From: Catajapyx aquilonaris
Lineage: Eukaryota
Reading direction: 5' to 3'
DNA: 32,950 nt
NCBI GenBank assembly: GCA_000934665.2
Contig: JYFJ02004347.1
Span: 1 to 32,950, forward strand
The notes under the pieces: generated by a model
What the model saw: the letters and a program-made list of their open reading frames with translations, nothing else
What the model was told of the DNA's origin: nothing
Database searches by the model: none
Translations under genes and position numbers: made by a program
Shown here: positions 2,771 to 28,768 of the stretch, one piece after another
How the letters are laid out: the number at the start of each line of letters is the position of its first letter
Position numbering within the stretch: position 1 is the stretch's first letter

Positions 2771-3545
2771 AACACCCTCGTAGCAGCATTACTTGAAAAC
2801 ATAGCTCATGGAACAGGTCAATCGGGTAATATGCTATGCAGGAGGCAACATATGATATGTATGAAGTGGTAAGCAGAGAGGTGTTTTAAAGGAACTTGTG
2901 CACATACACAAAAATAGATGATTCTTTAGTGAAGAGGGGATTAACCTTAGCAGGGTCATTCCAGCTCAACTGAGTCAGTGTTGCTCGACCATCTCCGATT
3001 TGGCTGAAAAAATCAAGGTGGTACACACCTACACCTAATGTGAAATATCAAATTTCAGCCCTATTGCACAACACTGGTGGAGGAGGTGCTCCCAAAATTT
3101 GGGCCAGCCAGGAAATCAGCCCCTTTTTGGTGAATTATTTCGGTGTGTAGCAGTGGTCAAACCCATCAAACATATATGTCAAAAAAAAGAGGTATGCGAT
3201 TGTGCTGCCACCACACCCACATGGTGCGCAGTAGACTTCTGCACATAAGCATGCACATCCACTTTCGACAACAGTACTTGAATATATCATCAACACGAAA
3301 GTACAGTGGTGGTTTCCATTTCCACCACTGTACTTCCTATATCTTCTCATTTAAAAAATCACTTATTCTTTATTGAAAGGCCCTCATGCATAGTTGCTAT
3401 TTTACAATCTTCAGCTAGGTTTAATTTCATACCCCCTCCCTTCCCCATCCACGCAGTAGCAATAGCCTGTAGTTATTTTTCGGTCATATCTAGGAAATGC
3501 ATTGAAATGTGTGACTGTGGTGTGCAATATTAATATACTTTTTAA

Positions 3546-5472
3546 AGGGAGACTCCACTCAAAGTACAAGTTGGCCTCTAAAAATCGGGGGGGAAATCCT
3601 GATTCCGAGGGTATACGGAGTTTTTCTGAGAGACGAACGGTAAGGCCAGGGCGAGTCGTCAAAGTTCGGCAATTCGAATCTGGCGCAAAAGAGCAGCGCC
3701 TCTTCCGGGTGTGGGCAGAAATTGCCGGAAGATCTTGAGCTGATCTTGAGGCGCCTTTCAGGGAGGAGTAGGATGGAGAGGAAACCTGCCCCAGCCGCCT
3801 GGCATTTTTGGTGTCCAGGGCGTTTCAGTTTGCCGAGGGGCCGCCAGTTGTCGCCAGGGTCTTTTTTGCTCTAGAATCTGGTGCTTTGTATATGGCGAAG
3901 CACTGCGTGAACCGCTGATTTTGGTGATTTAACGAAAATGGCTCGTCCTGAGTTGGACATTTTCGATGTGGATGACAACAGTAGTTATGCGAACATATTG
4001 CCCTGCCGGTCAAGTAGTGGTGACATTACGCACGGAGCATTACACTACCGGTAGCCTACTGGTCGAAAGTTTAGCATAACCCCCCAGCAGAGGTTTTTTT
4101 ATTTCTCAAGCTTAAACTTACAGTACAAATTAAAAGTGCGAGGTACCGTTGAAAGCGTTGTGAATAATTCTACAAAGCAAAAAAGGAACGGTCACTAGGT
4201 TCAACAGAGGCGCAGATATTACCTATTTTGTTTTAAAAATCATTCTTGAACACCTACATTTTCAACTATAAATATTAATAAAGAAAGGTAATCGTCACGA
4301 ATTGATGCTTTATAATTTTTATTTATGGCAAGAAGTAAACGCCGAACATAAAAGAAATTACCACAAAAATTTAAAAAACTTATCTCTCGAACTGTAATTT
4401 TTTAAATTTTCGGCAACGTGAAGAAATGCCGAAAATTTAAAAAATACAGTTCGAGTGATAATTTTGTTTAAAATTTTTGTGGTAATTTCTTTTATGTTCG
4501 GCGTTTACTTCTTGCCATAAATAAAAATTATAAAGCATCAATTCGTGATGATTACCTTTATTTATTAATATATTTATAGTTGAAAATGTAGGTGTTCGAG
4601 AATGTTTTTTTAAACAAAATAAGTAATATTGCGCCTCTATGTTGAACATAGAGTGACCGTTCCTTTTTTGCTTTGTAGAGTTATTCACGACGCCTTCAAC
4701 GGTACCTCACACTTTTAATTTGTACTGTAAGTTTAAGCTTGAGAAATTAAAAACCTCTGCTTGGGGATGATGCTTAACTTTTGACCAGTAATGTACGTTA
4801 ATGCTCCGTGCGTAATGTCACCACTACTTGACCGGCAGGGCAATATGTTCGCATAACTACTGTTGTCATCCACATCGAAAATGTCCAACTCAGGACGAGC
4901 CATTTCCGTTAAATCATCAAAATCAGCGGTTCACGCAGTGCTTCGCCATATACAAAGCACGTGCAAAGCACCAGATTCTAGAGAAAAAAAGACCCTGGCG
5001 ACAACTGGCGCGGCGAACTGAAACGCCCCGGACACAAAAAATGCCAGGCGGCTGGGGCAGGTTTCCTCTCCAACCTACTCCTCCGTGGTACGGCGGCTGC
5101 TGCTGAGAGCGACGTACCAGCAAGGCTTCCCAGACCAAGCCCGCACGGCCTCCTCCAGTACCAATTTGAGCCGTACAACGAGGAGGTGGCCACCCCCACC
5201 CACGACCCGACACCAGTACAGACCAAATATGGCATGGACCAAAGACGGCTGACATTTCAGGCAATTTCTGCCAAGTCCCGGTTGGCGGCGCGCGAGGAGG
5301 GAGCGGACTGGGCCGGGGGAGCAGCTCTTTTGCGCCAGATTCGAATTTCCGAACTTTGACGGCTCGCCGTGGCCTTACCGTTCGTCTCTCAGGAAAACTG
5401 CTTATACCCTCGGAATCAGGATTTCCCCCCCGATTTTTAGAGGCCAACTTGTATTTTGAGTGGAGTGTCCCT
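3546..5472. mobile_element. 1.9-kb near-complete palindrome, Kolobok-like non-autonomous element
   Basis: TTAA|AGGGAGACTCCACTCAAA...TTTGAGTGGAGTGTCCCT|TTAA. Arms pair up to a ~11-nt loop at ~4416-4426; the right arm has extra sequence at ~5085-5320. TTAA TSD with purine-purine start fits Kolobok rather than piggyBac (CCY). Confidence 0.85.
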
Positions 5473-6124
5473 TTAACGAGTTTCATATTTACCATTTGGC
5501 TGCAAATTTTTTTTAAAAGTATGTCACCCAAGAATCAACATATCCAAATACTGCCACAGACCTTCAGCTACTACTGCATGTTTACTCCCTGCTGATCAGT
5601 TTAGAACTCGGGTGCCACATTCACTCCAACTAGAGGTCTCTGCTGCCAAGCCTATTGATTTGTCTCTTGATCACTCCTTTGGCTCTTGCCACCAAAAATT
5701 TATGGAGGTGGAGAAGCAAGTGAAGGACACTTGGTGCATGGTCTGGACCTTTGGAGGATGCTCAGAGGCATTCCGCTTTGGCTGTTGGAGAAGCATGACA
5801 ATGCCAGAGGCACTACCTGCATGGGCATTACTCAAAGTCTGCATATGTTCAAATGATGCACCTGTGAGCACCCAGATAATGGTCCAGACCTTGCATAAAG
5901 TTATCTTCATGTTTTTCCACCTGTAGAGAAAAGAAATTTCAGGTGAGAGGCTAGGGAGCTTGGTGGTAGCAGTGTTCAACATAAGCTAACAAAATTTGGT
6001 ATCACAATAAGGAAAGGCCTAATTCAACATGTTCCTGTGCAGTTGCAGTTACAGGTGTGTGGCTTTGATGATTCCTTTTTTTCAAATTGTCAAAAATATT
6101 GTATGGCCCAATGGTAGAGTGGTT

Positions 6125-8426: not shown

Positions 8427-8773
8427 TACATCTCTAGAAATTAATGATTATCAACAAGTCTCGCCACCTTGGCGGAACTTCCCCGTTGCTTCATCTGGCA
8501 CCTCACGGGGCCAGTTCAAACAGGAAAAAGTACTGATAAGACAGAGCTGCTGCTGGAGGAGTGAAAATCATTGCCGTCATTGATTTGAACGAGTGACACA
8601 GACGTTGGGTCTGCCAATTATTAATATAGGTAATACCTCATTATAAGGAGGTTTAGGGGATTATTTAAAACCACTCGAAACATCACTTTATTCATCATAT
8701 CACTTCTTCAATGAGGACAATGTTACCAAATGACAGGTAAGGAGTCGGGTGAGTGGTCTGCCGATTCAATATA

Positions 8774-8845
8774 CAGGGTGACTCTAAAGTCAGGATACAT
8801 AGGTAATTGGATTACATTGTTGGCTTCCAGTTGTGCCAACTCGAC
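8774..8845 (+). mobile_element. Half copy of the Tc1/mariner MITE found complete at 28582-28768
   Basis: TA|cagggtgactctaaagtcag...cataggtaatt.gatt...ttgttgg.ttcca.ttgtg.caact. Confidence 0.7.
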
Positions 8846-9342: not shown

Positions 9343-10911
9343 GGCATGGCCAGAAATGGTGGACATCGGCCTGCGCCCATAAGCTCTGTAGGGCTTGCAG
9401 TGTAAAACAGCTGTAACTCGGTTAATTTTGATCGAATTAAGTTTATTTTCATTCCGCAATAAGATAATAGTATACCTACCCCGGCCTACACTGATGACTC
9501 AAAAAAATTAAAATTGCATATTATGTTCTGAGATAATTGGCTGCAGTTCCCTTATGGAGTTTTATGTGGCATTTTTCTCTTGGACCCAAACAAGCAACTT
9601 CCATTCGAAATATTTCATTGAGCTCAAAAGTGCATGAAATATAGGATGTGTGTGACAAAAAGCTGCTTCCATCCTTAAGATTGGTCCACAATGAAGTGAG
9701 ATAAGACAAATCTTATGACGCCCTTCAGTATCCACTGATCTGTGTGCATGGAGAGGATGGGTACCACATGGTGGGCCTCTTCTCCAGTGACCCCACAGCC
9801 GCCTGCTGGTACAGTCACCCATGCCAGATTGGCCATTTTGGGGTTGGGACATAACTAAGAGAGGTGCCAGTCTTTCAATGCTATTCCACATTTACTGCAC
9901 AACCTTCAATTTTGCATTATATACTTTTGCTGGATTTTTCAGGTGTATTGTGTATTTTCTTACAATCTGACATCGGGCCAATTCCACGTGAACGTGATCA
10001 CCTTTTGCACGAAAAAATTTGCCCGTCGATGAGTGTGAGATATGTTTTAATCCAGGTCAAGTTATGACCTTTCCCATAAGGATTTGGACCGCCGATGCGT
10101 GGTTACCTATCTACAGGAGCTAACTGCACTTGGATTTCAGTTAGAGGCGACCCCCTATTACATTTACATGACAACGTAAATGTATGATGTAATACATGTT
10201 TCATGCATGAAATTGTCTCCTCTTTTCGACAAAAATAGTCACTTTCTGATAGCGGTGCAAATTAATGTAACAAAGCGAGATTTTTGCAAACAAATGACAT
10301 TTTCAAAAAAGAGCCAAAGTCAAATGCCATTACAATGATATCAAAATACACTTGATAGTGTCCTCTATCAGTGGTACAAACAGAATTTTGGAATACGAAA
10401 TGGTTACGGAGCTATAGGCACTGACGTGGAGCGCTGCGCGAGTGCCCACACCCAAAGTATATAGAACTACCTGAGGTAGGGCGCTCCGGGCGCTAACCAA
10501 TCAGCAAAGAGGGGGGTGATGACGCGTCGAGAAAGCAAAATGTGGCGGGCCCTTTGAATTTCAGGCTCTCCGCATGGGAAAGATTCGCTCGCGCCTACCC
10601 TTCTAGTCCAGAATATTCAAGTACTAACCACTATGTACTATTCATGCTCCTTCAAGGTATATATGCCAGGTACTCACTTCATCTATTACTGTCGCCGTCC
10701 AGGTGGGTGGGCTCTGTCAGAGTGCACCTTGAGGTCAATGACACATGCCGGCGGAACAAAATAAAAACATCTTCCTGACATCCAAAATGACCAAATTTTT
10801 TTCTCCCTATTGGACACTCCTGAGGCAAGCATGTGACTATAAATGTGACTATAAACCAGGAGCACATTTTCGCACAATGAACGCCTTGTAGTTGTGCTGG
10901 CTCAGGTTTGA

Positions 10912-11303
10912 TGAGTGACTCACTGAGTCACGTATTGCTTCCTTATGCCGTCGCGTTCCATTTCAGTTCAGGGTGGTTCAGGGACAGACCACGGGCAGAC
11001 TGAAAGTGTTTCAGAGTAATCCACAGAGGAACGCGAGTGTCTTTGTCAGGTGAGTTTATACCAAAAATATGAAACGGCAGTGCATTGATTTTATTTATAC
11101 CGGCAAATAAAATCAGCCACAGGCTAATTTCCTAACATACGCGGCCTATTGACACTAAGCGGACCAACTTTGAAGGGCACAACAGATGGTTATAATAATA
11201 TTAACATATAGACATATGCGAGATATTGACGTTGCTCATGATTGCTTTCTGGCCTGCTAAAATGTAATTCGTAATATATCAACATTTGAATATCTGTTTT
11301 CAG
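10912..11303 (+). promoter_or_regulatory. Putative transposase promoter and 5'-UTR intron
   Basis: Paired AP-1-like TGACTCA/TGAGTCA at ~10916-10930, Inr-like TCAGTT at 10963, donor CAG|GTGAGT at 11050, acceptor tctgttttcag ending at 11303, 1 nt before the ATG at 11305. Motif evidence only. Confidence 0.5.
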
Positions 11304-11304
11304 C

Positions 11305-14019
11305 ATGGGGTCGTGTGCAATCGCGACGTGCCAAAATTATTCCAGAATAACAAAAAGGAAAGGTTTGGCGGTATCCTAGTTCACATTTCCCAAGGACCCT
11401 GACATCAGACGCGAATGGATGAGGAGGTGCAAACGTGCTGATTACCTCAATCCTGACACGGCCAGAATTTGCTCTGTCCATTTTGCCGAGGATGATTTGG
11501 AACGGGATCTAATGAGCGAATTGATGGGGACTCCAGCTACGAAGAAATTAAAAGCAGGCGCGATCCCGAGTCTGTTCCTGGTGCCTTTATCCAGCACTAC
11601 TGAAGCAATAGCTCCATCCGCCGGTACATCGTCCGACAGGGACAGTCTGTTGACAGGTGAGGCAGGCCCAGGGACATCAGAACCAGAGGCAGCCCCAGGG
11701 ACATCCATGCAGGGGAGATATGAAAGGCGACAGTGTAGGAAGCGTGCTTTAAGTAGGCTGGAAGAGCTATCGCCGAAGAAAAGAAGGACAAGAGATTCAT
11801 CTACATATGAAAAGAAGGAAACAGAGCGTCAACAAGAAGTAGCTGCCTTACAGTTTCAAGTGGCTACCCTGCAGAAAAAAATTGATGCCCAGGAGAAGCG
11901 CCATTTTGCCACAGTAAAAGCCCTGAAGTTGGAAATCAACACTCTCAAAGCATCCCACCGCAAACAAGAAAAGGAGGCAAAATTGGGTGCCATGCAAGAG
12001 GTCCACAAAATCCTGGAGCGGGTGTTTACACCAGGGCAAATAAAGCGCCTAATACAAGGAACCAAACGGGTAAAGTGGTGTAAAGAAGACATAATTGGAG
12101 CGCTGTCCCTTAGAAGCCTGAGCAAAAAGGCGTACATATTTTTAAGGGAAAAAAGAAATGTCCCCCTACCCGGTTTAACAACACTCAGGCAGTGGACTCG
12201 GTCCTTTCAATGCCATCCTGGACTATTGACCGCAGTTCTAGATGTCCTCAAGGGAAGTCAACTGCATCCAGATGTTTTCAGCCGTCGTTGCGTCCTATCC
12301 TTCGACGAAATGAACATAGATTCGAGGCTTGCCTACGATCATGAGAGCGACACTATTTTTGGACCACACAAAAATGTGCAAGTAGTCATGATCCGGGGAT
12401 TGCATTCCAACTGGAAACAAGTTGTGTACTACGCCTTCGATGAGACCATGGAGCAGAAGGTGTTAGAGGGAGTCATTTCAGCAGTAGAAGGTGCAGGATA
12501 CCATGTGGTGGCTTGCGTTAGTGACTTGGAGGGCAAGAACGCTCGCGTTTGGAACGCCCTCAATGTGACACCTACAAGTCCGTCATTTCCAAACCCCCAT
12601 GATCCTGCCAGAAAAGTGTGGGTGTTTGCAGATGCCCCCCATCTGCTGAAGCTCATCCGCAATCACTTCCTGGATGACGGGTTCATTTTACCCAGTGGAA
12701 GGAGAATAGGGAAGGATATTGTAAATCGACTCCTGGAGCAGGATAATGAGGAACTGAGGATTTGTCATCACATTCGTGATGATCACGTTCTTGTGTTCCA
12801 CCGTGACAGGCAGCGGGTGAGATTGGCCGCCCAATTATTTTCAAATCGGACTGCAGTTGCAATCACTTACCTTTTTCCGGAAGAAGTGGAGGTGTCCAAC
12901 TTTTTCCGCCTGGTGAACAATTACTTCGATGTTTTCAACTCGCGAATCCCAAATGACAGAAAATGCCCACTTAGGAGCGCTTACGGAAAATGTACTGAAC
13001 AAGTCCCAGTCTTACAGGACATGGCACGCACCTGCCGTGAACTTCACGTGGTCGGCCATAAGTCCATGCTGCCTTTTCAGCGCGGGATAGTCCAATCTAT
13101 CAATTCACTCAGGGGCCTTCAGGAAGACTTGCAGGGCACGTCCACTGCAACATACATTCTGACAGCGCGGCTCAACCAAGATGTCTTGGAGAACTTTTTT
13201 ACTCGAGTGCGTGGTTTGGGACATACTTATGACAATCCCCATCCAAGTGAGTTTAAGAACCGCTTGCGACTGCTGTTGTTGGGTGTTAATGCCAGTGATG
13301 TCCCATTAAGTGCCAGTGTGAGCGCACCAATTGATGAAGATGCTGTGGAGGAGGGGCCTTTGCTGACGGGCAGGATCCTCAAGTCTGGAGTTGATCCTCA
13401 ATTCCAAGAACTAATTAAGTCCGAAGAAGAACGCTGCGAGAAGTTGCTGGTGGACGACTTGGCGCAAGAATTGGGGATCATAATGACAGAGGCTGATACG
13501 ACCACCAGTGCGACCACCAGTGCGACAGTGGCAGACGTTCAGCCTCTTGGGCCGAAAGAGAAGGATTGCTCAATGGAAGGCTTGAAGTATCTTGCCGGCT
13601 ACATAGCTTTTCGTGCACGCAAGGTAGACAGCACTCTCGGGTTGAGGACCAGCCAGCGAAGTGGATCAAATAAACCACGGGACACCTGGATAGACGTAAT
13701 TTCAAAGGGGGGATTGTACAAGCCGAGGGAATGGTGGCTGGAAACTGTGCGGCAGTTTGAGGTGGTTTTTTGGACAGTTCATGGCAACTTTGCCTCAAAG
13801 CAAAATCACATCATCCGATTCCTCCGCGAACTGTTACAAAAAAAGTTCCCCAGGCTACACCCCGAAATTATCAGGCTCTACTCCAGGACCAGAACATTCA
13901 TCAGGATTCGTCACCTCAATGCGAGAGCAAGGAAACTGGCGGCGGCGAAGCGAGACGCAAAGAAGGCAAGGAAGTGGGCCCAATCTAGCAAGGCCCACCC
14001 ACCTGGACGGCAACAGTAA
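11305..14019 (+). pseudogene. THAP-domain P-element transposase (904 codons) with one in-frame TAG at codon 25; 866-aa ORF from 11419 remains open
   Basis: MGSCAIATCQN...AVS*FTFPKDP...W...ARICSVHF...LKAGAIPSLF (THAP C2CH), then a coiled coil, LPGLTTLRQW, catalytic-type motifs LSFDEM / VSDL / FADAPHLLKLIRN / LNQDVLENFF, QRVRLAAQLFS and C-terminal YLAGY. Confidence 0.93.
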
Positions 14020-14305
14020 TAGATGAAGTGAGTACCTGGCATATATACCTTGAAGGAGCATGAATAGTACATAGTGGTTAGTACTTGAATATTCTGGACT
14101 AGAAGGGTAGGCGCGAGCGAATCTTTCCCATGCGGAGAGCCTGAAATTCAAAGGGCCCGCCACATTTTGCTTTCTCGACGCGTCATCACCCCCCTCTTCG
14201 CTGATTGGTTAGCGCCCGGAGCGCCCTACCTGGGCAATTCTATATACTTTGCCCACACCTGCAGAAAAAAAGGAGCGGCCCACCTAGGTCCGTCTTCATG
14301 TCTCA

Positions 14306-14365
14306 GGTATAGGCTAGTATATAGGCTAGTATATAGGCTAGTATATAGGCTCAGTATCAGGCTAG
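14306..14365. repeat. 12-bp minisatellite (GTATATAGGCTA) about 4 copies
   Basis: Directly visible tandem repeat in the centre of the host palindrome. Confidence 0.85.
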
Positions 14366-15286
14366 GTGGAGATACCTCCCCGTTTTCTGGGTGTCAATAG
14401 CGTAAAACTAGGTGCATAGAATATACACTACAAGATGAGCCTAATTTTTGTCGCTTGGGTTGTGGGGCTACTCAGGGTAACCTTGAACAGGTGCTTTTAT
14501 CTACCATCGCACCATCGCAAAGAAAGCAGGAACTCATGCTCTGAAACGAAAGTTTGCACAGTAGCAGACCAAGTTTTTTTGGAACTATATTTCTTGAGTG
14601 AATTAAACACAAAGGACAAGCGTACACTATACCTGAGACATGAGACAGACCTAGGTGGGCCACTCCTTTTTTTCTGCAGGTGTGGGCACTCGCGCAGCGC
14701 TCCACGTCAGTACCTACAGCTCCGTAACCATTTCGTATTCCAAAATTCCGTTTGTATCACTGATAGAGGACACTGTGAGGTGTATTTTGATATCAATGTA
14801 ATGACATTTGACTTTGGCTCTTTTTTGAAAATGGCATTTGTTTGCAAAAATCTCGATTTTTGACATGAATTTGCACAGCTGTCGTAAAGTTAATATTTTT
14901 GTCAGAAAGAGGAGACAATTTCACGCATGAAACATGTATTACATCATGCATTTATGTTGTCATGTAAATGTAATAGGGGGTCGCCTCTGAGATCCAAGCG
15001 CAATTAGCGCCTGTAGATAGGCAACCACGCATCGGCGGACCAAATCCTTATGGGAAAGGTCATAACTTGACCTGGACTAAGACATATCCCACACTCGTCG
15101 ACGGACAAATTTTTTCGTGCAAAAGGTGATCACGTTCACGTGGAATTGCCCATCCGCAGTGTGTTGTTTGGACTTCATGCACATGCAATATGCTCCATGT
15201 TACAGGTATGCCAACATTGAATAGCCATAATTATTTCAAAGGTAACTACCAAATCAATGAGTTACTCCTATGGAAAAGTATTTCAT

Positions 15287-15316
15287 AACCCGAGCAACGC
15301 CGGGTATCCTGCTTGT
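15287..15316 (+). mobile_element. Helitron-like 3' end
   Basis: acccgagcaacgccgggt hairpin followed a few nt later by CTTG|T (canonical CTRR|T). The 5' end was not identified. Confidence 0.45.
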
Positions 15317-17617
15317 GACTAATTATTTCCAACCACAGAGGTTTTTATTGCCATATTTGGAGACACCGGTTGCTATGCTACCAGCTCGTTTTTTCCTCTC
15401 TTGATGCAATGGGGAAGTAGCCTTGGTCTGGGATTTGGGATTTTTGTTCATAACTAGCTAGCCCAGGCCTGTAAACCCACATTCCATCACTCTGTTGCAT
15501 CAAAATGACATTACTGGATAAATTACGGCACATTTAAAAGTGCCTTCAAAATTGGCGGGAAAAACGGGGCGGCCGGGTGGTGCCAATCGAAAGGGTACAC
15601 TGAAATGGCTGGTTGACTGCGAGATATGAGGAATTTGACTTTGAATTAACCGCGGACACGACGGAAAGCATTCGCAAGGCGGCTGTAGGCCATCGAGGTG
15701 GAGAAAAGGGGCCTTCATGTGCCGAATTCGGGTGACAGATAATTCCTACCAGTTGGCACCACTGTCAGCCCAGAAGCGGTTTGAGCGGCCTGGAATAAAT
15801 ACGCGCCCCGGCCGCTATCTTGCTCACGGAATGGGACGGTTTCTAACAACAGCGAAGCATTTTACGACAATGACGGGGCGCGTTCTATAACACCATTTTT
15901 GCGTTCATTTCACTTCGCGTGACGTCAACATTTTCTAGGCAAACAGTGACGTCACCATTTGCCTAAGAAAAAACGCCAATATCTCCGGAACTGAAACTGA
16001 TATCTTAAAACGGAATATGCCAAAAAAAATCCAAAAAATATGGGCGAATTTATTATGTAGTTTCCAAAATGAAGGCTACTTCCTCATTATAAGCTTTTTG
16101 CAGCAGCAGCTCTGTCTTATCTGTACTTTTGCCTGTTTGAACTGCCGTTGTGAGATGCCAGATGAAGCAATGGGGACGTTCCGCCCTTGTGGATAACCGT
16201 TAATTTCCAGCATTGTCCTCGTTGGTAATATACATCACTAATATATTCACAGGTAGTGCCATCCTTTTGGCTTTAATTTTTTTTAGAAGCTGCTCTATGC
16301 AAATGGACCACTGTACTCCGATGCCTGGAGCACAGTGGTCCACAAGTGATTGGGACCCATAATTCACACAAGAATGTTTTTTTTTTTGTTTTTAAGAAAA
16401 TTGTACATCTAACGCTAACCCCTCTAAATAAATAGGAAAAAAGAAAGGGGGGCCTTCTTTTACTGCAACGTGTGAACATAAAGTGAAACATCGTTTCTCT
16501 CCGGAATATAGACTTTGTTCTGCCACATCCATTGCTGAATGAACTTTATTTCATAATAGTGTCTGTCAAATCCATTAGCATAAAATCCTATGATGACATT
16601 AATTACTATACAGAGGTAAAAGGGGGCATGGTCATCCACAAAGAGGTGCTCACTGGTCCATGGACTACTGTGCCCCAGACGGGAGCAACTGATATGATGT
16701 TAATAATCATAGATTCCATTGCAAATGACGTTTCCAACTTTCCAGCATTTATGGGCAAAGGATGACACTATTCTGCAACATTTTTACATCAGGCCCATGC
16801 CCAGCATCTATGTCCGACATGGCATTTAAACTGTAGGTAAGAAGTTACTTCACTACCCTTCAAATAGCTTTCCCCTGATGCAGCAGGAGTGAAGGCATCT
16901 CACAGGTGGCTGTCATGTTGGCAAGAAGCACAATAGTGCCTTGTTTCACGAGGTACCAGATGAAGATGTTATTCCCAGTTCTTATATTTTCAAAACAGAA
17001 AGAACCACTGTGTCCCACTTTCCCCTACATACTGTAATAATAGCAAGAATAAAACCTGCACCCATCCAGCCTTTCGTCTTTCGACAAATATTTTGGCGGA
17101 AGTGGTCATTTGGAAGAATTTATTGTCCTTTGGAGAATTGTTTGGAGAATTTGAGAGAATTTTCCTTTGGATGACAATTTTGTTGGACAAATTGTCCATG
17201 AGCAAAATTTCATTCCACAAGATGTCATTAGATGAAAGTAGTTTGGAAAAAGCGATATGATACTCCCTACTCATCACAAACCCTTAAAAAATCAATCATG
17301 TTAACCGTGCAAGGGTCTGAGCCTTGGTAACTATTGCATTTTAGACATTCTCTTCAGCCACCATAGCTGCTCACAACCATGTGACCATCTTGTGAACCAT
17401 CACACTCATAGTAAAACCAATAAATCCAATCCACATATAGATGGATTGGTTTCTTGCAAATTAACCACTACTATCAAATAGTTCACAATAATTCGGGAAA
17501 TAATGATTCAGTGACTTCCATTGGGCGAAAATGCAATTCAGCAAATGCACTGTTTGAGGTGTTGGAAATTACATGAAAAAAAATAATAGACTTATGGATC
17601 AGATAGAAATGTAGTAC

Positions 17618-19114: not shown

Positions 19115-19330
19115 CAGAGGCTCCCAAACTTTTTGAGTCGCGGAGCACTTTTCAGGAGAGATATTCGTGACGGAGCACTAACATCATTGAGCTGCGGAGG
19201 CATAAAAAATTTCGGGAGGCAAGGGGGGGGGGGGGGGAAGGCAGNGCAGTGCCAAATTAGGAACTCGGAAGGCGAAGGGCTGCCGCAGGCGAAAATTTTT
19301 TGGGTTCAAGATCACACAAGCTACTGAGAT
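19115..19330 (+). mobile_element. hAT (Charlie-type) left end
   Basis: TTCTAGAC|CAGAGGCTCCCAAACTTTTT: NTCTAGAN-type target and CAG..G.TCCCAAAC terminus. The right end was not found. Confidence 0.6.
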
Positions 19331-19676
19331 ATATACAGGGTGATCCAACTCTATGGCACCAACAGTTATTGGAAATATCGCGTAAGCTGCTTGTTTATAA
19401 GCAGGTCGTTGCTAAGAGATACTTTCTGGAGAATCGGGAATAGCACCTGCTGATATTAGGTCCAGTGCCCATGTAACAATATTACTGAGGGGAAAAAGGG
19501 TCATCCGTGGGAAACGGGCCTGTTCTGGTGTTCGCTGGAGGGTTTCACATGAGGTCACTAGCTGCCAAACCACAGGCCTAATCAGTCGGAACTGGACAGA
19601 CCCGGGTGTGTCAATAAATAGGCCTTCTGGTCTGTTCATTGTTGGCCGCTGTTGGCAAAACTGAGACAGGTCAACA

Positions 19677-21422
19677 CAGGGTATATAGAAGGAAGGGTAG
19701 AGCCATAACGGGCTGGGCCAATTATAGCGCAGCAGTATGTGACGTCACCGGGATGACAAAATTTCCCGCCAATTATGAAAGACAGGCTCTGGGCATTGGG
19801 CAACGGGCTTGTGCCCGCTTGTGCCTGCGATTAGAGACTGAAACTCAGGTGATGTGCCATTGTACGATGTATTCTGATTGAAGGGAATGTGCTCAGTACT
19901 CACCTCTCACTGTCGCCCACCACCTGGGCACGAATGAAGGTCGGATTGGACCCACTTCCGAGCCTTCTTTGCGTCGCCTCGCCGCTGCCCGTTTCTTCGC
20001 TCCTGCATTCAGATGGCGAATGCGAATAAATGTCCTGGTCCTGGAGTACAGCCTGATCACTTCAGGGTGGATGCTGGGAGACTTCTTTTGCAGCAATTGG
20101 CGAAGCAACAGAATCACACGCTGTTCTTTTGAGGCGAAATTGCCGTGAATAGTCCAGAACACCACCTCAAATTGTCGCACAGTTTCCAGCCACCATTCAT
20201 TAGGTTGGTATAAGCCCCCCTTTGAAATCACGTCAAGCCAAGTGTCGCGAGGTTTGGACCCACTCTGTTGACTGGTTCTTATGCCGAGTGTTTGATCTAC
20301 TTTTCTTGCTCGGAAAGCGATATAACCAGCAAGGTATCTCATGCCTTCGTTGGAGCAATCCTTTTCTTTGCGGCCAATAAGAGGCGTAACTACCTCCACT
20401 GAGCCATTGGTGATATCACTGGAGTCAGATACTCTGCTCTGCTTCTGCTCGGAGTCAATGCTGCCGATGTCCCCCTGAGCGCATCAGTTAGTGCACCAAA
20501 TGACGAAGCGATGGAGGATTCAGGGCCTTTGCTGACTCGTAAAGTGCTCCGATGTGGTGTAGACCCCAATTTGATTGTAACAATTGAGGCTGAGGAAGAA
20601 AATCGTAGCTTCTTTGAGGTGGACGACACAGCTAAAGAGTTGGGCATCACAGTATCAGACTCCAGTGATATCACCAATGACTCAGTGGAGGTAGTTACGC
20701 CTCTTATTGGCCGCAAAGAAAAGGATTGCTCCAACGAAGGCATGAGATACCTTGCTGGTTATATCGCTTTCCGAGCAAGAAAAGTAGATCAAATAACACT
20801 CTGCATAAGAACCAGTCAACAGAGTGGGTCCAAACCTCGCGACACTTGGCTTGACGTGATTTCAAAGGGGGGCTTATACCAACCTAATGAATGGTGGCTG
20901 GAAACTGTGCGACAATTTGAGGTGGTGTTCTGGACTATTCACGGCAATTTCGCCTCAAAAGAACAGCGTGTGATTCTGTTGCTTCGCCAATTGCTGCAAA
21001 AGAAGTCCCCCAGCATCCACACTGAAGTGATCAGGCTGTACTCCAGGACCAGGACATTTATTCGCATTCGCCATCTGAATGCAGGAGCGAAGAAACGGGC
21101 AGCGGCGAGGCGAGGCGACGCAAAGAAGGCTCGGAAGAATAGTGGGTCCAATCGGGCCTTCATTTGCACCCAGGTGGTGGGCGACAGTGAGAGGTGAGTA
21201 CTGAGCACACTCCCTTCAATCAGAATACATCGTACAATGGCACATCACCTGAGTTTCAGTCTCTAATCGCAGGCACAAGCGGGCACAAGCCCGTTGCCCA
21301 ATGCCCAGAGTCTGTCTTTCATAATTGGCGGGAAATTTTGTCATCCCGGTGACGTCACATACCGCTGCGCTATAATTGGCCCGGCCTGTTACGGCGCTAC
21401 CTGTAGGTTTCTATATACTTTG
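19677..21422. mobile_element. Non-autonomous foldback P element made of two inverted transposase 3' ends
   Basis: TSD GGTCAACA at 19669-19676 and 21423-21430; termini CAGGGTATATAGAA / TTCTATATACTTTG. Arms 19677-20433 and 20651-21422 both encode EGMRYLAGYIAFRARKVD...WWLETVRQFEVVFWT...RTRTFIRIRHLN, homologous to the C-terminus of the 11305-14019 transposase. Confidence 0.94.
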
Positions 21423-21594
21423 GGTCAACAGGCAGCGTTCTTTAGTTACCAGTAAATAAATAGTTCATGTAGAGTCAGGACATGCCTTACTCAGGGGGCC
21501 TGTTCGAGGGCCGCCCAAGGGCTTCTAGGGTTCTAACAGTACAGTCTGCATTGGGCATTCTCTCATTAATTGGTACATGCATGGGCATTGGACC

Positions 21595-21844
21595 CAAAGA
21601 GTTCTGCTATTATATAATATAATACCTAGAGGAGGTACTAGCCCTATCCTTTTCCATTAGACAGGCTGAGGCAGCGGCCATCTTGTTGGAGGTAATATTG
21701 TTGTTCTAACAGTTGTCTAGCAACTGGGACGACAACCGTTAATGACAACTGGGACGACAATTAGTTCAATAATGTCAGGCATCCGCCATTGTGTTGGAGG
21801 TAATATTGTTGCCTGCCTCACATTTCAGCCCGAGTGCCTCCTCT

Positions 21845-21885
<41 letters not shown>

Positions 21886-21897
21886 CAGAACGCTTTG
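21595..21897. mobile_element. 303-bp P-type MITE with (TA)n inside its inverted ends
   Basis: TSD ATTGGACC at 21587-21594 and 21898-21905; CAAAGAGTTCTGCTAT...ATAGCAGAACGCTTTG; inner IR atacctagaggagg.act. Confidence 0.85.
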
Positions 21898-22359
21898 ATT
21901 GGACCTAATATCAGCAGGTGCTAAGACTGGTAACTAAACAACGCTGCCTGTTGACCTAATATCAGCAGGTGCTAAGACTGGTAACTAAACAACGCTGCCT
22001 GTTGACCTATTATTATCAGTTGCGCCAACTGCGGCCAACAATGAACAGACCAGAAGGCCTATTTATTGACACACCCGGGTCTGTCCAGTTCCGACGGATT
22101 GGGCCTGTGGTTTGGCAGCTAGTGACCTCATGTGAAACCCTCCAGCGAACACCAGAACAGGCCTGTTTCCCACGGATGACCCTTTTTTCCCTCATTAATT
22201 GTTACATGGGCATTGGACCTAATATCAGCAGGTGCTATTCCCGATTCTCCAGAAAGTATCTCTTATTGATCTCTTAGCAAAGACCTGCTTATAAACAAGC
22301 AGCTTGCGCGATATTTCCAATAACTGTTGGTGCCATAGGGTTGGATCACCCTGTATATA

Positions 22360-22929
22360 CAGGGTGGTCGGTAAATGGCGCACAAGCTTCAGGTAGCGAG
22401 ATTCCTTGTGAAAAACCAGTATATGGAAGTGAAGGTCCTATTGCTCTACGAGGCCTGGTTAGGGCTCACGAGGCCTCCAAAGTTTGGGCCAAATCCTGAC
22501 GTCACATCCGCCCGCGAAATTCAAACACTCCCGTATCGCTACCGTACGCGGCGTGTTGCCATGTTGACATCCTCCACATGTTCACCAAACAATGGAACCG
22601 TATAAACTCGCCGGGACGTTGCCAGGAACTCGGCGACGACAGTATGGCAATTCCTGGCAACATCCCAGCCAGTTTATACGGTTCCATTGTTTGGTGAACA
22701 TGTGAATGATGTCAACATGGCAACGCCTAGCAACACCCCGTGTCCGGTGGCGATACGGTAGTGTTTGAATTTCGCGGGCAGATGTGACGTCATGATTTGG
22801 TCCAAACTTTGTAGGCTTCGTGAGCCCTAACCAGGCATCATAGAGCAATATGACCTTCACTTCCATATACTGGTTTTTCACAAGGAATCTCGCTACCTTA
22901 AGCTTGTGCGCCATTTACCGACCACCCTG
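22360..22929. mobile_element. Tc1/mariner-type fully palindromic MITE
   Basis: TA|cagggtggtcggtaaatggcgcacaagctt...aagcttgtgcgccatttaccgaccaccctg|TA; arms pair to within ~20 nt of the centre (~22640). Confidence 0.92.
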
Positions 22930-22950
22930 TATAATCATATAAAATGACGA

Positions 22951-24150: not shown

Positions 24151-25832
24151 CAATGCGTCTCTCTTGGCAACAGGTGTTCCAAACACAAGCATGTGTCACC
24201 CCCTCCCAACACAACAGCGAACTGACTCGCTGGCGAAAAGAATATGTAATGAGGGCGAAAACTCAGGAAAGTTCACCAAATCGTTCGAAATGACAAACCG
24301 ATCAACCGCAAGAGCACAATTAACAGTAAATCAGTGAGCATGGATCTTGGCAAAGCCACAATAATGTTCATTGGCCCGCGGCACCACAAGCCAGAAGATT
24401 AATGTTGTGGACACACAATCCACAATAAGCGCCCACCTCGCTAATGCTTGCAATTAACAAAAATGATTGGGCTAATTAAAGGACCCTGCACTGACAGGGC
24501 ACAAAGAGCCCTCTGAACTGCAACACCTCTCTCTCTCTCNCCCCCCGCCTCCCACCACTTTGTCGCACAGGAAAGATCAGCCCCATTTTGAAAGTTTTGA
24601 ACGATAGGGCCATAACCGTTTGACAAATACACTAAGTTATTCCCGATTATCTGGGAGCAGATCACTCAAAAAATTAGTTAGAAAAGAAAAAAAAGTCTAA
24701 AAGAATGTCAATATGTCTGGCAAACAAAGAAATGCAACAGACTTTTCCCAGAAGTCAAACTCAAAATCTATGGTACGTTTTATTATTTTGATTAAAACTT
24801 ATTGAGAGCAGCATACAATATGTGCAGTAGTATATTAAAAACCTATGAATAGCTCATTTCTAGGGAATCTAGGACCATTTTCGCATTTTCCGATTTTCTG
24901 TGTTTTCGGATTTTCTGAGCACACCTGTGCATTCTTACCTGCCTGTCACCTTCATTTTTAACTTTGGCTCTATATGAAAAGTACTGATCAGACACAGACC
25001 ATGTCATCACACACTAGTGCATTAGTACCACTCATAAAGAATGAGATGACTATATGGACGATCAGTTTATTCATTTCTGTTCCCAACCCCTGGATCACCA
25101 GCATGTTTGAAAGGGTCTTGGGGAAGGCCGGGTAGAGGGAATGAAAATAAAGAAAAAAAAGAAGAAAACAAGGCAGAGAAGGAAAATTGTAGAGGGGAAA
25201 TTAATCTCAAATCTACGTAAGGGTAATTCCTAGACAACACCCTCCATTTTTTTGATTTTGATGAAATTTTGCATGCAGGTCCCAAACTGGATGAGTAAGT
25301 AAACACCCAATTTTCAGACACCTACATTCAATAGGTCAAGAGTTATGCCATGGTCAAAATTGAAGAAAATCTAAAACATGGACTCAAAAATCGCATCATA
25401 TCTCGGTGAGTACTTACTCTACCGCGACTTTTCATATGTCGATAGATTCGCAATAGTGTGGAGCAGACGATGGATGCATCAAAAGAATTTTTGCAGTGCA
25501 GGAAAATCGTCATTATCGCGAGGTCAAGTTTTGTGACCTTAGACCATGCCCATGTCTGTCGGTCGAAATGCTTGAGAATAAAAACACACTGATACCCACA
25601 CCTCTGTTCCAAACACAGGTATAAGTTTAATTTTAATTAGGATATGTCTGCTGGGCGAAAAAAAATCCAGACTACTACTGTGTCATTGAAATCTTCGATG
25701 TCTCCTGCAATCTCGATCTTATTGATTAGCAGATAGGTATTTTTTCCAGGGGTTAATTAGGTGACTAGGAAACCCCTCGAGCTAGGAAAATTTAAAATTT
25801 ACACCATTAGAACGTATGTGGTCCAGCCTATA

Positions 25833-26421
25833 CAGTGTGTTTCAGAGTCACGGGTCAAGTGTGCGCAAGGGGGTGGGGAAAAATCGTAGGTGGCGACAAC
25901 CCCGGTTGGTTTTATAAGACAATTACAATTACGAGAGTACCGGTAAGCAATTTATTTATTACGGCCGTACGGCGTGACGTCACATCCTTTCTGTATTCGA
26001 ATTGACTGGCGTGGACTGGCACATTCACTGGGTTGAAACTGTTTGAGCGGCTTTTTAGCCTTGTGGGTTGCACTGAAAAAGGTGCTCTCATGCTACACCG
26101 GCAGGGTACTGTACAACGTAGTGTACTACTGTACAGTACTGTGTACAGTATCCTGCCGGTGTAGTAGGAGAGCGCCTTTTTCAGTGCAACCCACAAGGCT
26201 AAAAGGCCGTTCAACCAGGTTCAACCCACTAGTGCACCTGCCAGTCCGCACCAGTCAATTCGAATACAGAAAGGATGTGACGTAACGCTGTATGGTCGTA
26301 ATAAATAAATTGATTACAGCCGTATTTCTAATTGTTTTATAAAACTGACTGGGGTTGTCGCCACCTACGATTTTTCCCCACCCCCTTGCGCTCACTTGAT
26401 CTGTGACTCTGAAACACCCTG
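25833..26421. mobile_element. Tc1/mariner-type fully palindromic MITE
   Basis: TA|cagtgtgtttcagagtcac...gtgactctgaaacaccctg|TA; arms pair to the centre at ~26127. Confidence 0.9.
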
Positions 26422-26469
26422 TACTGTGAGATATTGTAATGATGGGATGGGATAATGATAAGATGGGAT

Positions 26470-26867: not shown

Positions 26868-27441
26868 CTGAAAGTAGAAAAGACCTTTTCAAACTCATTG
26901 TTCATACCAACAGTCCACATATAACTTACTACTCACCACCACAAAAACCACCACATTACCTGTTTAACAAGTTTCTACTTATAAACATTATACAGTTTGC
27001 TGTTAAGGCCTTCTTACTTACATGATAAAATGGCCATCATAACTGGTCACACTGCACAGTGTGGCCAAACGTGTGAATGCTTGGACAATGGCTCCCTCTC
27101 CACGCATATGTCATGATGTGGTCACAACTTTCCTTAAATTTAACCTTTGACAGCGAAATTTTTTCGGACTGTTTTTTTCTTTTCTTGATGAAAATTTGCA
27201 GTAGGAGTGATATTAATAAGAGCAAAAACAATCCCTGGAGTGAAAAAAAGGGTAGTAAGACCTCTGTGGCGGAATGAAGGTACTGACACAAGGCAGGCGC
27301 ACGTAAGACCTTCACCAATTGATTTATGCTGTGCCATAGGTCTTACTCAAGCAATTCTAAAATTAATGCTCATAAAATATCCTTTCTGAACCCCCCATTA
27401 TAACCCGATAAGGGTCTGTAGGGGGGTGGAATACCACCATA

Positions 27442-27991
27442 CAGGGTGGACCAACTTCAAGTGTCGTTTTATAACGGCGATTAATAGCAGTGATTTTGCG
27501 ATGACGTAGCAGCGACGTGTAAAATGTCCCACTTCGGCGCCATCGAAAATATTAGCGGCCAATAGCAGCACACATGTAATCAACCCTGCTGCTGGGGACA
27601 AATGTGTGTTAGCGGGGACGGTCTGGTTGGCCTCCCAATAGGCCGTGGTTTCTTTGCGACCCTGAGGAGTACCGGTTTGAATGCTCTGCAGTCTTGCTGA
27701 TCGAATGCAGGTTTGGGCATTTCTTGGTTGGTGGTTAGGGGGCACCGCACGTGCCCTGTTTTACACCGCGTGTTGCGCGGGCGAGGCAGCCTTCTTTAAG
27801 GACTGCCGGATTGGCATTGGTGCCGCATGTGGCATGTGGTTGCACAGGGTTCATTACATGTGTGCTGCTATTGGCAGCTAATATTTTCGATGGCGCCGAA
27901 GTGGGCCATTTTACACATCGCTGCTACGTCAATCGTAAAGCGCTTCTGTTAATAGCCGTAACAAAACGACACTTGAAGTTGGTCCACCCTG
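27442..27991. mobile_element. Tc1/mariner-type MITE with ~140-bp TIRs
   Basis: TA|cagggtggaccaacttcaagtgtcg...cgacacttgaagttggtccaccctg|TA. Confidence 0.9.
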
Positions 27992-28014
27992 TATTTCCCT
28001 CTAATTGTCTGTAA

Positions 28015-28275
28015 TTTTTTTCAATAACCGTGCAGGGAAGAAAGGACATATAGGGTAGGGATGGCGATTTTTGGGGAGGGAACATGGGTGCAGGTGCAAT
28101 GTTATTGTGTCGGGCCATGTGCTGTTCCCCGGGAGGTTAGGTTGCCAGACACCTCCAAGGCGTGGGTCAGAGACCCTCCTGACACAGGCGAAAGGTAAAT
28201 CCCCGGTGGGGTTCGAACCTGGGACCTTTGACTCAGCAAGCCGAGACGTTACCATCTCTGCCACCGTACCTGCTC
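28015..28275 (-). mobile_element. tRNA-derived SINE (family A)
   Basis: A box TGGCAGAGATGG, B box GGTTCGAACCC; collinear with 1510-1750. Confidence 0.88.
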
Positions 28276-28581
28276 GGAACTTCAATATGAAGTTTATTAT
28301 TTGAATTTCTCTATGATTTGAGAGAATTCATTGCCATCAAACATTATGCACAACCGTCGCCTGAGTACTGGGTTTTAATGATTGTAATGTTTCAAATTTT
28401 TCACATATTGTCGTAAATTGCTTGATTTTCTAAGGTCGTTTTTGATGGGATTCTGCATTTGCATGGCGGAACAAAGTCTGTGAGGATGGGCCGAGTTTTA
28501 TTCCCCTAAATGTAACTTTGCCTACTGCTAATAGTAGTTTGCATTATTTGTACAACTTTTTACGAGCAATTCTGCACAATA

Positions 28582-28768
28582 CAGGGTGACTCTAAAGTCA
28601 GCATTCATAGGTAATTAGATTGTATTGTTGGTTTCCACTTGTGTCAACTAGCAGATTGTTGTCATTCAGTAAAGTATGAGTTGGCAGAGTCGGCACTTGG
28701 AGTTGGCACAACTGGCAACCAACAATACAATCAAATGACCTATGTATCTTGACTTTCGAGTCACCCTG
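28582..28768. mobile_element. Tc1/mariner-type palindromic MITE
   Basis: TA|cagggtgactctaaagtca...tgactttcgagtcaccctg|TA. Confidence 0.85.

Follow-up and report, generated by a model that had tools for sequence, protein, structure and literature searches.

The closest described systems are the canonical P element and Galileo. The P element of Drosophila melanogaster has 31-bp terminal inverted repeats (TIRs) as well as sub-terminal repeats of 11 bp, and its gene is divided into four exons (PMC3698922). In a study of its transposase (PMC8230255), residues D230, D303, E531, D339..H342, and D444 are named as catalytic or important. The TIRs of Galileo measure 0.5–1.2 kb (PMC3688188). In D. willistoni, the Galileo gene is intronless with 905 codons, and the target-site duplications (TSDs) are 7 or 8 bp in length (Goncalves et al. 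2014; PMC4168063). That paper describes a short overlap between the open reading frame (ORF) and the TIR as well as a larger recruitment of the ORF, 69 bp in one state and >500 bp in other copies, and calls this unique to Galileo. Repair or template switching is given as the cause of the ORF-end recruitment there and in PMC3573991. The capture of an ORF end by TIRs is already published for Galileo and is not new.

Here we describe element A, a P-superfamily DNA transposon of 3,799 bp (10453–14251), and its foldback neighbour A2 (19677–21422). Both lie in the window, that is, the whole stretch of 32,950 nt that was analysed, to which all positions refer (Table 1). We conclude, with a probability of roughly 85%, that A is a recently inserted, low-copy, nearly autonomous cut-and-paste transposon of the P superfamily, with a P/THAP9-type transposase, and that A2 is a non-autonomous foldback of a sister lineage, presumably born by repair.

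Table 1. Positions of the features of elements A, A2, and B in the window.
Feature	Position	Strand	Remarks
Left TSD copy of A, CCCACACC	10445..10452	.	Identical to 14252–14259
Left TIR of A	10453..10724	+	272 nt; inner end is the antisense ORF tail AHPPGRRQ plus stop
Unique 5' leader of A	10725..11304	+	
Transposase CDS of A	11305..14019	+	904 codons and stop; TAG at codon 25
Right TIR of A	13981..14251	-	271 nt; overlaps last 12 codons and stop of the CDS
Right TSD copy of A, CCCACACC	14252..14259	.	
Host element B	9975..15150	.	High-copy foldback-like repeat
Left TSD copy of A2, GGTCAACA	19669..19676	.	
Left arm of A2	19677..20436	-	Inverted copy of 20648–21422; starts with CAGGGTATATAGAA
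Unpaired centre of A2	20437..20647	+	Transposase coding sequence running on into the right arm
Right arm of A2	20648..21422	+	Transposase 3' coding end (ORF 20511–21197) and terminal region
Right TSD copy of A2, GGTCAACA	21423..21430	.	

Termini and insertion site of element A

Global alignment of the full TIRs of A (10453–10724 against 14251–13981) gave 11 differences in 272 columns: four fall in a spacer at positions 15–21, the final 12 nt account for five, and the remaining two are found elsewhere. A repeat search delimited a core of 251 nt with 97% complementarity (10474–10724 pairing with 13981–14231) and found no internal tandem repeats in the TIRs. The outermost 14 nt, CAAAGTATATAGAA, are the same at both ends. 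With up to two mismatches allowed, this 14-mer has four matches in the window, which are exactly the four ends of A and A2; 0.25 matches were expected from the shuffle control, and four were reached in none of 100 shuffles. The TSD of A is a perfect 8 bp. The original prediction, made from the sequence of the window, had given TIRs of ~260 bp and an 8-bp TSD; the TIRs are indeed far longer than those of canonical P, with an aligned length of 272/271 nt, and the 8-bp TSD was found in A and also in A2. The 5' leader carries more contig variants than the central coding part, and it possibly contains an intron, the candidate being 11050–11303 (GT..AG) with its acceptor directly before the ATG.

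Element A is inserted in the left arm of host element B, an older repeat, a nesting that had previously been missed. The arms of B (9976–10452 and 14260–14295 against 14643–15151) enclose a loop at about 14296–14642. The other arm keeps the uninterrupted target, GAGTGCCCACACCTGCAG, and thus provides an empty site in cis for A. B itself sits in another high-copy repeat, with 3–4 letters (ATC/CATC) in common at the joint. Contig joints from 10449 to 14268 and from 9970 to 15151 were found in all four runs, the former representing other copies of the host repeat without A. Joints from 11579 to 13957 and from 11415 to 11895, at single-contig depth, represent internally deleted sister copies of A. 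Among the pieces listed, 2.1–2.2-kb contigs cover 11918–14042 or more in two of the four runs and contig pairs do so in the other two, and none of the 32 contig pieces listed of 4260 bridges the A/B junctions. A single sample, perhaps the window's own source, is the origin of all the contigs, and they do not support the assembly independently.

The window is rich in inverted repeats (76 pairs). Host element B and the other palindromes were considered as P derivatives and rejected, because their termini differ. Several of the palindromes start with TACAGGGTG after TA, an arrangement that looks Tc1/mariner-like. Nowhere in the window did an Rfam family attain its gathering score.

The transposase and its relatives

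The domains of the A transposase are ordered as THAP, HTH, the N part of an RNase H-like fold, a GTP-binding insertion, and the C part of the RNase H-like fold. The THAP domain scored 59.9 bits in Pfam over profile positions 1–87 of 87 (the stop being entered as X), and its zinc finger (C2CH) consists of C4, C9, C56, and H59. The TNP-like RNaseH_N (PF21787) and GTP-binding (PF21788) domains scored 58 and 52 bits, respectively. The P-element HTH scored 23.8 bits against a Pfam cut-off of 23, and RNaseH_C (PF21789) scored 17.3 bits, under its cut-off of 24. A phmmer comparison aligned query residues 163–624 with residues 102–564 of the Drosophila P transposase (PDB 6p5a) at an E-value of 2.4e-85. 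In this alignment, D296, D369, and E591 of the 866-aa ORF (see below) correspond to D230, D303, and E531; the DDE triad, D334/D407/E629 in the 904-codon numbering, is intact. The DAPH motif aligns with D339..H342, and D504 with D444. Element A thus carries the marks of the P superfamily: a THAP finger, a DDE core split by a GTP-binding insertion, and TIRs with a TSD in the range of 7–9 bp. Its predicted membership in that superfamily is confirmed by the Pfam domains and the 6p5a match, and the predicted lack of introns in the CDS also stands, since one 904-codon frame is collinear with P0002 (spanning 99% of the query), P0040 (one stretch, query residues 3–856), and the Drosophila P transposase (again in one stretch). 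Like canonical P, A has this domain order with the DDE triad and the GTP-binding insertion, an 8-bp TSD, and internally deleted derivatives. In contrast to the 31-bp TIRs and four exons of P, it combines 272-nt TIRs with a single coding exon.

An in-frame TAG at codon 25 (11377–11379), inside the THAP finger, had escaped the original prediction. Because of this codon, the open frame is at most 866 aa long (11419–14019), and the A copy is unable to make a THAP-bearing transposase. A G>T change at position 11379, which turns TAG into TAT, is present in all four runs of one sample, with G alongside it in X2 and X4.

The closest sequences found are P-like arthropod transposases: P0002, P0003, and P0040, together with annotated P transposases of the spider Stegodyphus mimosarum, the stick insect Dryococelus australis, and the lobster Panulirus ornatus. 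They are 42–46% identical to the A transposase along almost its entire length, and the spider, stick insect, and lobster proteins are its nearest relatives with a name, at no higher than 46% identity. Among 1.84 billion representatives, no relative was more than 50% identical over more than a fragment, and named Drosophila P, Galileo, 1360, and THAP9 were absent from the matches in the protein searches that included these representatives. P0036 (751 aa) was tried as a canonical P and rejected, as it is not one. The C-terminal motifs RTRTFIRIRHLN and KWxxSS are common to A and the closest sequences listed above.

A tree was built from 59 rows, namely the representatives P0040–P0074 (at least 600 aa), 11 earlier matches, and 13 loci; four of the 63 prepared rows (L011, L012, L034, and L036) were left out, being shorter than 450 aa. 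A falls in a clade of seven rows with an SH-aLRT value of 95. The long-TIR loci L008, L017, and L018 are scattered over the tree and many forks are unresolved, so that little can be drawn from it on the question of a long-TIR lineage. P-like elements from metagenomes (L002, L023, L017, L008, and L018) have termini related to those of A (CAAGGTGGTAGAAT and CAAGGCAGTAGAC). The metagenomic proteins are 31–36% identical to that of A, and the TIRs of these elements range from 31 to at least 185 nt, compared with 272 nt in A; the TSD of L023 is 9 bp, compared with 8 bp in A.

The ORF end in the TIRs of A

The stretch shared by the ORF and the TIR of A amounts to 27–39 nt. The last eight codons and the stop (AHPPGRQQ plus stop) lie in the cleanly matching right TIR, from 13993, and 12 codons and the stop lie within the full right repeat, from 13981; the frame stops 36–39 nt into the right TIR. 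Read as its reverse complement, the left TIR gives AHPPGRRQ followed by a stop, and both arrangements agree with what had been predicted. At the C-terminus, the right TIR borders directly on the conserved KWxxSS motif and supplies the last 8–12 non-conserved codons together with the stop; consequently, there is no spacer between the ORF and the TIR, and the same codons are found in antisense within the left TIR. Five relatives stop 2–5 residues past the SS of KWxxSS, and A stops 9 residues past it.

The foldback element A2 and its relationship to A

A2 has the same 14-nt terminus as A and a perfect 8-bp TSD. As predicted, it is a palindrome with the transposase 3' end in both arms, which are ~760 nt in length. 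The left arm carries the last ~168 transposase codons in antisense, the right arm ends in the reverse complement of CAAAGTATATAGAA, and the centre corresponds by homology to the 866-aa ORF of A from about residue 617 onwards. About 500–690 nt of coding sequence has been recruited into the arms. The differences between the arms gather in two patches, 19677–19726 and 19927–19976, the latter of which is homologous to the TIR edge of A and contains 15 of the 42 differing columns. The rest of the outer arm has three differing columns in 200 and the inner arm nine in 460, that is, about equally few. The notion that the inner extension is younger than the outer 280 nt is borne out only in part, since outside the two patches both are similar. 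A Fisher test on the arm differences gave a p value of 0.0002, which counts indel columns singly and is not to be over-read.

Over 237 aligned codons, A and A2 share 69% amino-acid identity with a dN/dS of 0.15, and 40 of 79 fourfold sites are identical. Judged from these codon comparisons, A and A2 are sister lineages long diverged under purifying selection. A2 belongs to a sister lineage with deep divergence from that of A and so does not represent a later stage of the A copy; the original prediction had regarded A as an early stage of 19677–21422, and these values do not bear this out. The clustering of the A2 arm differences at the place where the TIR of A ends hints that a TIR of ~270–280 nt ending in the ORF tail may already have been the standing architecture of both lineages. 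The TIR interiors of A and A2 aligned with a score of 41.5, against -18.1 (sd 9.8) for shuffles. Constraint on the whole 270-nt TIR was considered and rejected: with 131 matches in 242 columns, the interior is no better conserved than the fourfold sites and gives no sign that the full 270 nt is needed. Within each element the two arms are 97–99% alike, whereas divergence between the lineages reaches about 50% at neutral sites, indicating that the arms are homogenised, most simply by repair.

Discussion

By analogy with the P family, the THAP domain would anchor the transposase close to the ends, and the transposase would make staggered cuts; the stagger at integration would be 8 bp, and a template copy would serve to repair the break that excision leaves. 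In A2, the 3' end, comprising the TIR and part of the ORF, has replaced the 5' end, which accounts for the ~760-nt arms. Post-excision gap repair may go astray when a broken end pairs with the long TIR that is the wrong, inverted one on the template; copying would then proceed from the 3' end inward, with microhomology joining the two newly made strands. We infer this route solely from the structure of A2 and the literature. More generally, ORF-end recruitment and foldback collapse may be no peculiarity of Galileo but a general, repair-driven ratchet of the P superfamily that operates once TIRs are long enough to misalign in gap repair, a proposal that we regard as tentative.

A rival reading, which we consider doubtful, is that A was caught early in a progressive inward extension of the TIRs, with the ORF tail just recruited, and that A2 represents the advanced state. 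The antisense coding letters in the left arm of A could be derived only from the right end, and in all six metagenomic loci with a flanking repeat the ORF ends 49–300 nt before the TIR, which indicates that the overlap in A is derived; moreover, the D. willistoni Galileo study reports both 69-bp and >500-bp recruitment (PMC4168063). However, a dN/dS of 0.15 and identity at 40/79 fourfold sites place A and A2 in separate lineages, and the concentration of 15 of the 42 differing columns of A2 at the TIR edge of A suggests an old, shared state of ~270 nt. In addition, an ORF reading on into an adjacent TIR would explain the overlap equally well, the tail of A being only 4–7 residues longer than those of its relatives. 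It is improbable, to a greater degree, that A belongs to the Galileo branch and extends Galileo beyond Drosophilidae. The two resemble each other in the intronless frame (904 codons in A, 905 in D. willistoni Galileo and about 905–912 in Galileo), in the long TIRs and foldback derivatives, in the placement of the ORF end within the 3' TIR, with an inverted repetition of it in the 5' TIR (27–39 nt in A, 69 bp in Galileo), and in the presence of hundreds of base pairs of ORF in both TIRs (about 500–690 nt in A2, >500 bp in Galileo), the Galileo values for recruitment being those of PMC4168063. The TSD is 8 bp in both of our elements; according to the same paper, it is 7–8 bp within D. willistoni Galileo, the family norm being 7 bp. 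On the other hand, Galileo TIRs of 0.5–1.2 kb (PMC3688188) and more are often internally repetitive, whereas those of A are 272 nt without tandem repeats, and the ~760-nt arms of A2 consist of recruited ORF. The nearest named relatives of A are the P transposases of spider, stick insect, and lobster mentioned above, A strongly matches Drosophila P itself, and its host is a non-drosophilid arthropod, whereas that of Galileo is a drosophilid. This comparison of A with Galileo covers architecture and published values.

Two further readings are less likely still. That the A2 arms and the nesting of A in B are assembly artefacts of a repeat-rich region seems very improbable. The many inverted-repeat pairs of the window would favour such errors, and the contig comparison covers A and B alone; nevertheless, perfect 8-bp TSDs stand exactly at the conserved termini in both A and A2, the substitutions and indels between the arms are scattered, in the manner of genuine paralogous arms, and contigs or contig pairs in four runs, among the pieces listed, span 11918–14042 or more. 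The chance that A is a domesticated THAP9-like host gene, as its long open frame with all domains present might suggest, is negligible in view of its TIRs and TSD, its location inside a repeat, the deletion derivatives in the same sample, and the nonsense codon in the A copy. We retain the transposon with a probably repair-born foldback relative as the preferred reading. We class A as a putative new family of a known kind that shows known behaviour outside Drosophila.

Outside transposon biology, the finding is ordinary. Within the P superfamily, it is a second, independent case of ORF-end recruitment into long TIRs, which the 2014 paper treats as unique to Galileo. The nearly autonomous form and the foldback from its sister lineage lie together in one 33-kb window; each has a clean 8-bp TSD, and for one of them there is an internal empty-site control. 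The nearly intact long-TIR P-type transposase, of which a variant open at codon 25 exists in the same sample, could serve to ask whether long TIRs help transposition. If the proposed ratchet is true, the same repair would keep the arms identical while the lineages diverge, and P-like elements would repeatedly give rise to foldback-type repeats in the genomes of arthropods.

Transposase of element A

Element A, a P-superfamily transposon with long terminal inverted repeats (TIRs), carries a transposase frame whose sole break is a TAG at codon 25 (11377–11379); because of this codon, the longest open frame is limited to 11419–14019 (866 aa). A search against the Drosophila P transposase structure 6p5a gave a single aligned stretch (query 163–624, chain 102–564; E 2.4e-85), in which D296, D369, and E591 (866-aa frame numbering) are aligned to D230, D303, and E531. 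These three are the DDE triad, and D339..H342 and D444, which lie opposite DAPH and D504 of the A protein, are among the further important acidic residues in the available text of PMC8230255. The frame is collinear with its relatives across 99% of its length, and the coding part therefore lacks introns, in agreement with the earlier observation. A leader intron abutting the ATG could be present, judging from its putative GT..AG borders.

An exhaustive search retrieved 7,212 representatives at E ≤ 0.001, of which 652 reached E ≤ 1e-30; the top full-length hit shares 43% identity with the A protein. Its named neighbours, annotated as P transposases, come from Stegodyphus mimosarum, Dryococelus australis, and Panulirus ornatus.

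Features of the window and Pfam matches of the A protein
Feature	Position	Description
Element A	10453–14251
Target-site duplication (TSD) of A	10445–10452; 14252–14259	8 bp, CCCACACC, identical on both flanks
Paired TIR of A	10474–10724; 13981–14231	251 nt, 97% complementary (inverted-repeat search)
Spacers of A	10467–10473; 14232–14237	differ between arms
Putative promoter elements	10490–10530	CCAATCAG box and TGACGCGTCG motif, left TIR
Putative leader intron	11050–11303	GT..AG
Transposase frame	ATG 11305; stop 14017–14019	904 codons
THAP		59.9 bits, complete (profile 1–87 of 87), stop read as X
P-element HTH		23.8 bits, above cut-off of 23
TNP-like RNase H, N-terminal part		58 bits
GTP-binding insertion domain		52 bits
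RNase H, C-terminal part		17.3 bits, under cut-off of 24
Element A2	19677–21422	foldback relative of A
TSD of A2	both flanks of 19677–21422	GGTCAACA
Arms of A2	19677–20436; 20648–21422	inverted copies, 778 columns, 42 differences
Spacers of A2	19690–19714; 21383–21409	differ between arms
Repeat B	9975–15150	foldback-like, arms ~520 nt, termini GGGCCAATTCCACGTG
Arms of B	9976–10452 + 14260–14295; 14643–15151	inverted-repeat search
Palindromic/MITE-like elements	19330–22359; 22356–22933; 25831–26423; 27439–27994; 8771–8841; 28579–28649	TA|TACAGGGTG-type termini
Near-palindrome	3535–5483	1.95 kb, five nested inverted-repeat pairs
Two-copy repeat	1530–1751; 28053–28271	85–87% alike, tRNA-like stretch (GGTTCGAACC type)

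Terminal inverted repeats and the end of the ORF

Both ends of A start with CAAAGTATATAGAA. When up to two mismatches were allowed, this 14-mer was found at four sites in the window (10453, 14251, 19677, and 21422), against 0.25 expected from shuffles, and none of 100 shuffles gave four. Global alignment extended the TIRs to 10453 and 14251 (272 columns, 11 differences), with four differences in a short spacer (positions 15–21), five within the final 12 nt, and the other two elsewhere. The right TIR starts at 13981 and holds the final 12 codons and the stop; its cleanly matching part, from 13993, holds the final eight and the stop. The antisense AHPPGRRQ* proposed for the left arm was borne out by the sequence, and the earlier observation at 10453–14251 was confirmed overall.

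In the relatives, a shared C-terminal RTRTFIRIRHLN motif precedes a basic tail that contains KWxxSS. After the SS, the protein continues for nine residues in A and for two to five in five relatives. This tail length indicates that the TIR starts where protein conservation ends and supplies a short, non-conserved tail. Among 48 metagenomic loci with P-like transposases, most of them on contigs of ≤3.5 kb, an inverted repeat flanks the ORF in six (L002, 31 nt; L023, 32 nt; L019, at least 37 nt; L008, at least 104 nt; L017, ~115 nt; L018, at least 185 nt). In all six the ORF ends first, leaving a gap of 49–300 nt to the TIR. L023 has a 9-bp TSD, and L017 lacks a TSD. Termini of these loci (CAAGGTGGTAGAAT and CAAGGCAGTAGAC) are similar to those of A, and the six loci are scattered over the transposase tree.

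In both A and A2, the arms differ in the spacer right after the conserved 14-nt terminus and are nearly identical outside it; this difference may mean that the left and right ends are functionally distinct. The box and motif in the left TIR lie upstream of the leader, and the putative transposase promoter may be located inside the TIR. If so, the right-TIR copy would be directed inward, in antisense orientation relative to the ORF.

Relationship between A and A2

A2 begins with CAGGGTATATAGAA and ends with the complement of CAAAGTATATAGAA. Its left arm contains the last ~168 transposase codons in antisense, and its 211-nt centre and right arm together code for the transposase from residue ~617 to the end. 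A had been regarded as an early stage of the structure seen in A2, a view that the coding sequences contradict. Over 237 aligned codons, the two show 69% amino-acid identity and a dN/dS of 0.15, with dS (~1.5) near saturation, and 40 of 79 fourfold sites are identical. This divergence led us to conclude that A2 derived from a separate, long-functional sister lineage.

The non-coding TIRs of A and A2 retain recognisable homology (score 41.5 vs −18.1 ± 9.8 for 300 shuffles); conservation above that of fourfold sites was not found between them, conserved positions being confined to the terminal 14 nt and a few islands. Within each element, however, the arms are 97–99% alike, and they thus evolve in concert. 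Among the 42 differing columns of the A2 arms, 15 fall in the first 50 nt and 15 in 19927–19976, a segment mapping to within ~5–10 nt of the inner edge of A's TIR. This distribution hints at, but does not prove, a TIR of ~270–280 nt in the parent of A2, likewise ending in the ORF tail.

A2 is nested in one of the palindromic elements, where it lies at a GGTCAACAGGCAGCGTT unit, one of several such repeats. The termini of the palindromic elements look Tc1/mariner-like. The near-palindrome is unrelated to the P-like elements, and no TSD was evident at it. The two-copy repeat may be a SINE; it gave no Rfam match at the gathering score.

Insertion into repeat B and other copies

A sits within the left arm of B, a larger inverted-repeat element whose other arm retains an intact GAGTGCCCACACCTGCAG, the target site with the 8 bp in single copy. 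The region 9700–15400 was compared with Logan contigs from four runs (one sample of one study, possibly the assembly source). Contigs with the joint 10449→14268 represent other B copies without the 3.8-kb insert; their depth is 840–1,550 vs ~35–39 for window-identical contigs, these depths being per contig and not copy numbers. Joints 9970→15151 represent copies of a third repeat without B. B contig depths reach thousands vs ~35 for window-identical contigs, and B lies within another high-copy repeat, the joint sharing only three or four letters (ATC/CATC).

In each run, the central coding part of A is covered by a single contig or by a pair of adjoining contigs; the X1 contig over 11918–14152 differs from the window by 16 letters and 17 gap letters. 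The stretch 10464–11418 is covered by several variant contigs, and the joints 11579→13957 and 11415→11895 reveal internally deleted copies of the family. At position 11379, a contig with T (TAT, Tyr) was present in all four runs, with G also in X2 and X4, and the nonsense codon is thus specific to one copy or allele.

Comparison with published P-superfamily elements

In the available text of PMC3698922, canonical P is characterised by TIRs of 31 bp, a TSD of 8 bp, and four exons. Introns are absent from Galileo and 1360, whose TSDs measure 7 bp, and the TSDs of BuT5 and of repleta-group P elements span 8–9 bp (PMC3698922). TIRs measure 30–50 bp in the superfamily other than Galileo and 0.5–1.2 kb in Galileo (PMC3688188, in part), whose TIR extension is described as recruitment of neighbouring internal sequence (excerpts of PMC3573991). 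The accessible part of PMC4168063 reports for D. willistoni Galileo TSDs of 7 or 8 bp and a transposase of 905 residues; the 3' TIR of a near-complete copy overlaps the ORF by 69 bp, with an inverted copy in the 5' TIR, and copy 147 has >500 bp of the ORF in its TIRs. A Galileo survey covers Drosophilidae, and 'arthropod', 'outside', and 'non-drosophilid' are absent from its text as available (PMC10990002).

The TIR behaviour of A therefore has a published precedent. Judged against the sequence representatives searched and the published description of Galileo, A appears to represent a new P-superfamily family, whose likeness to Galileo may reflect either kinship or convergence. Together with the published Galileo states, the structures of A and A2 indicate that the window reproduces both ORF–TIR states of D. 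willistoni Galileo in another arthropod-type genome, and in an element with an 8-bp TSD.
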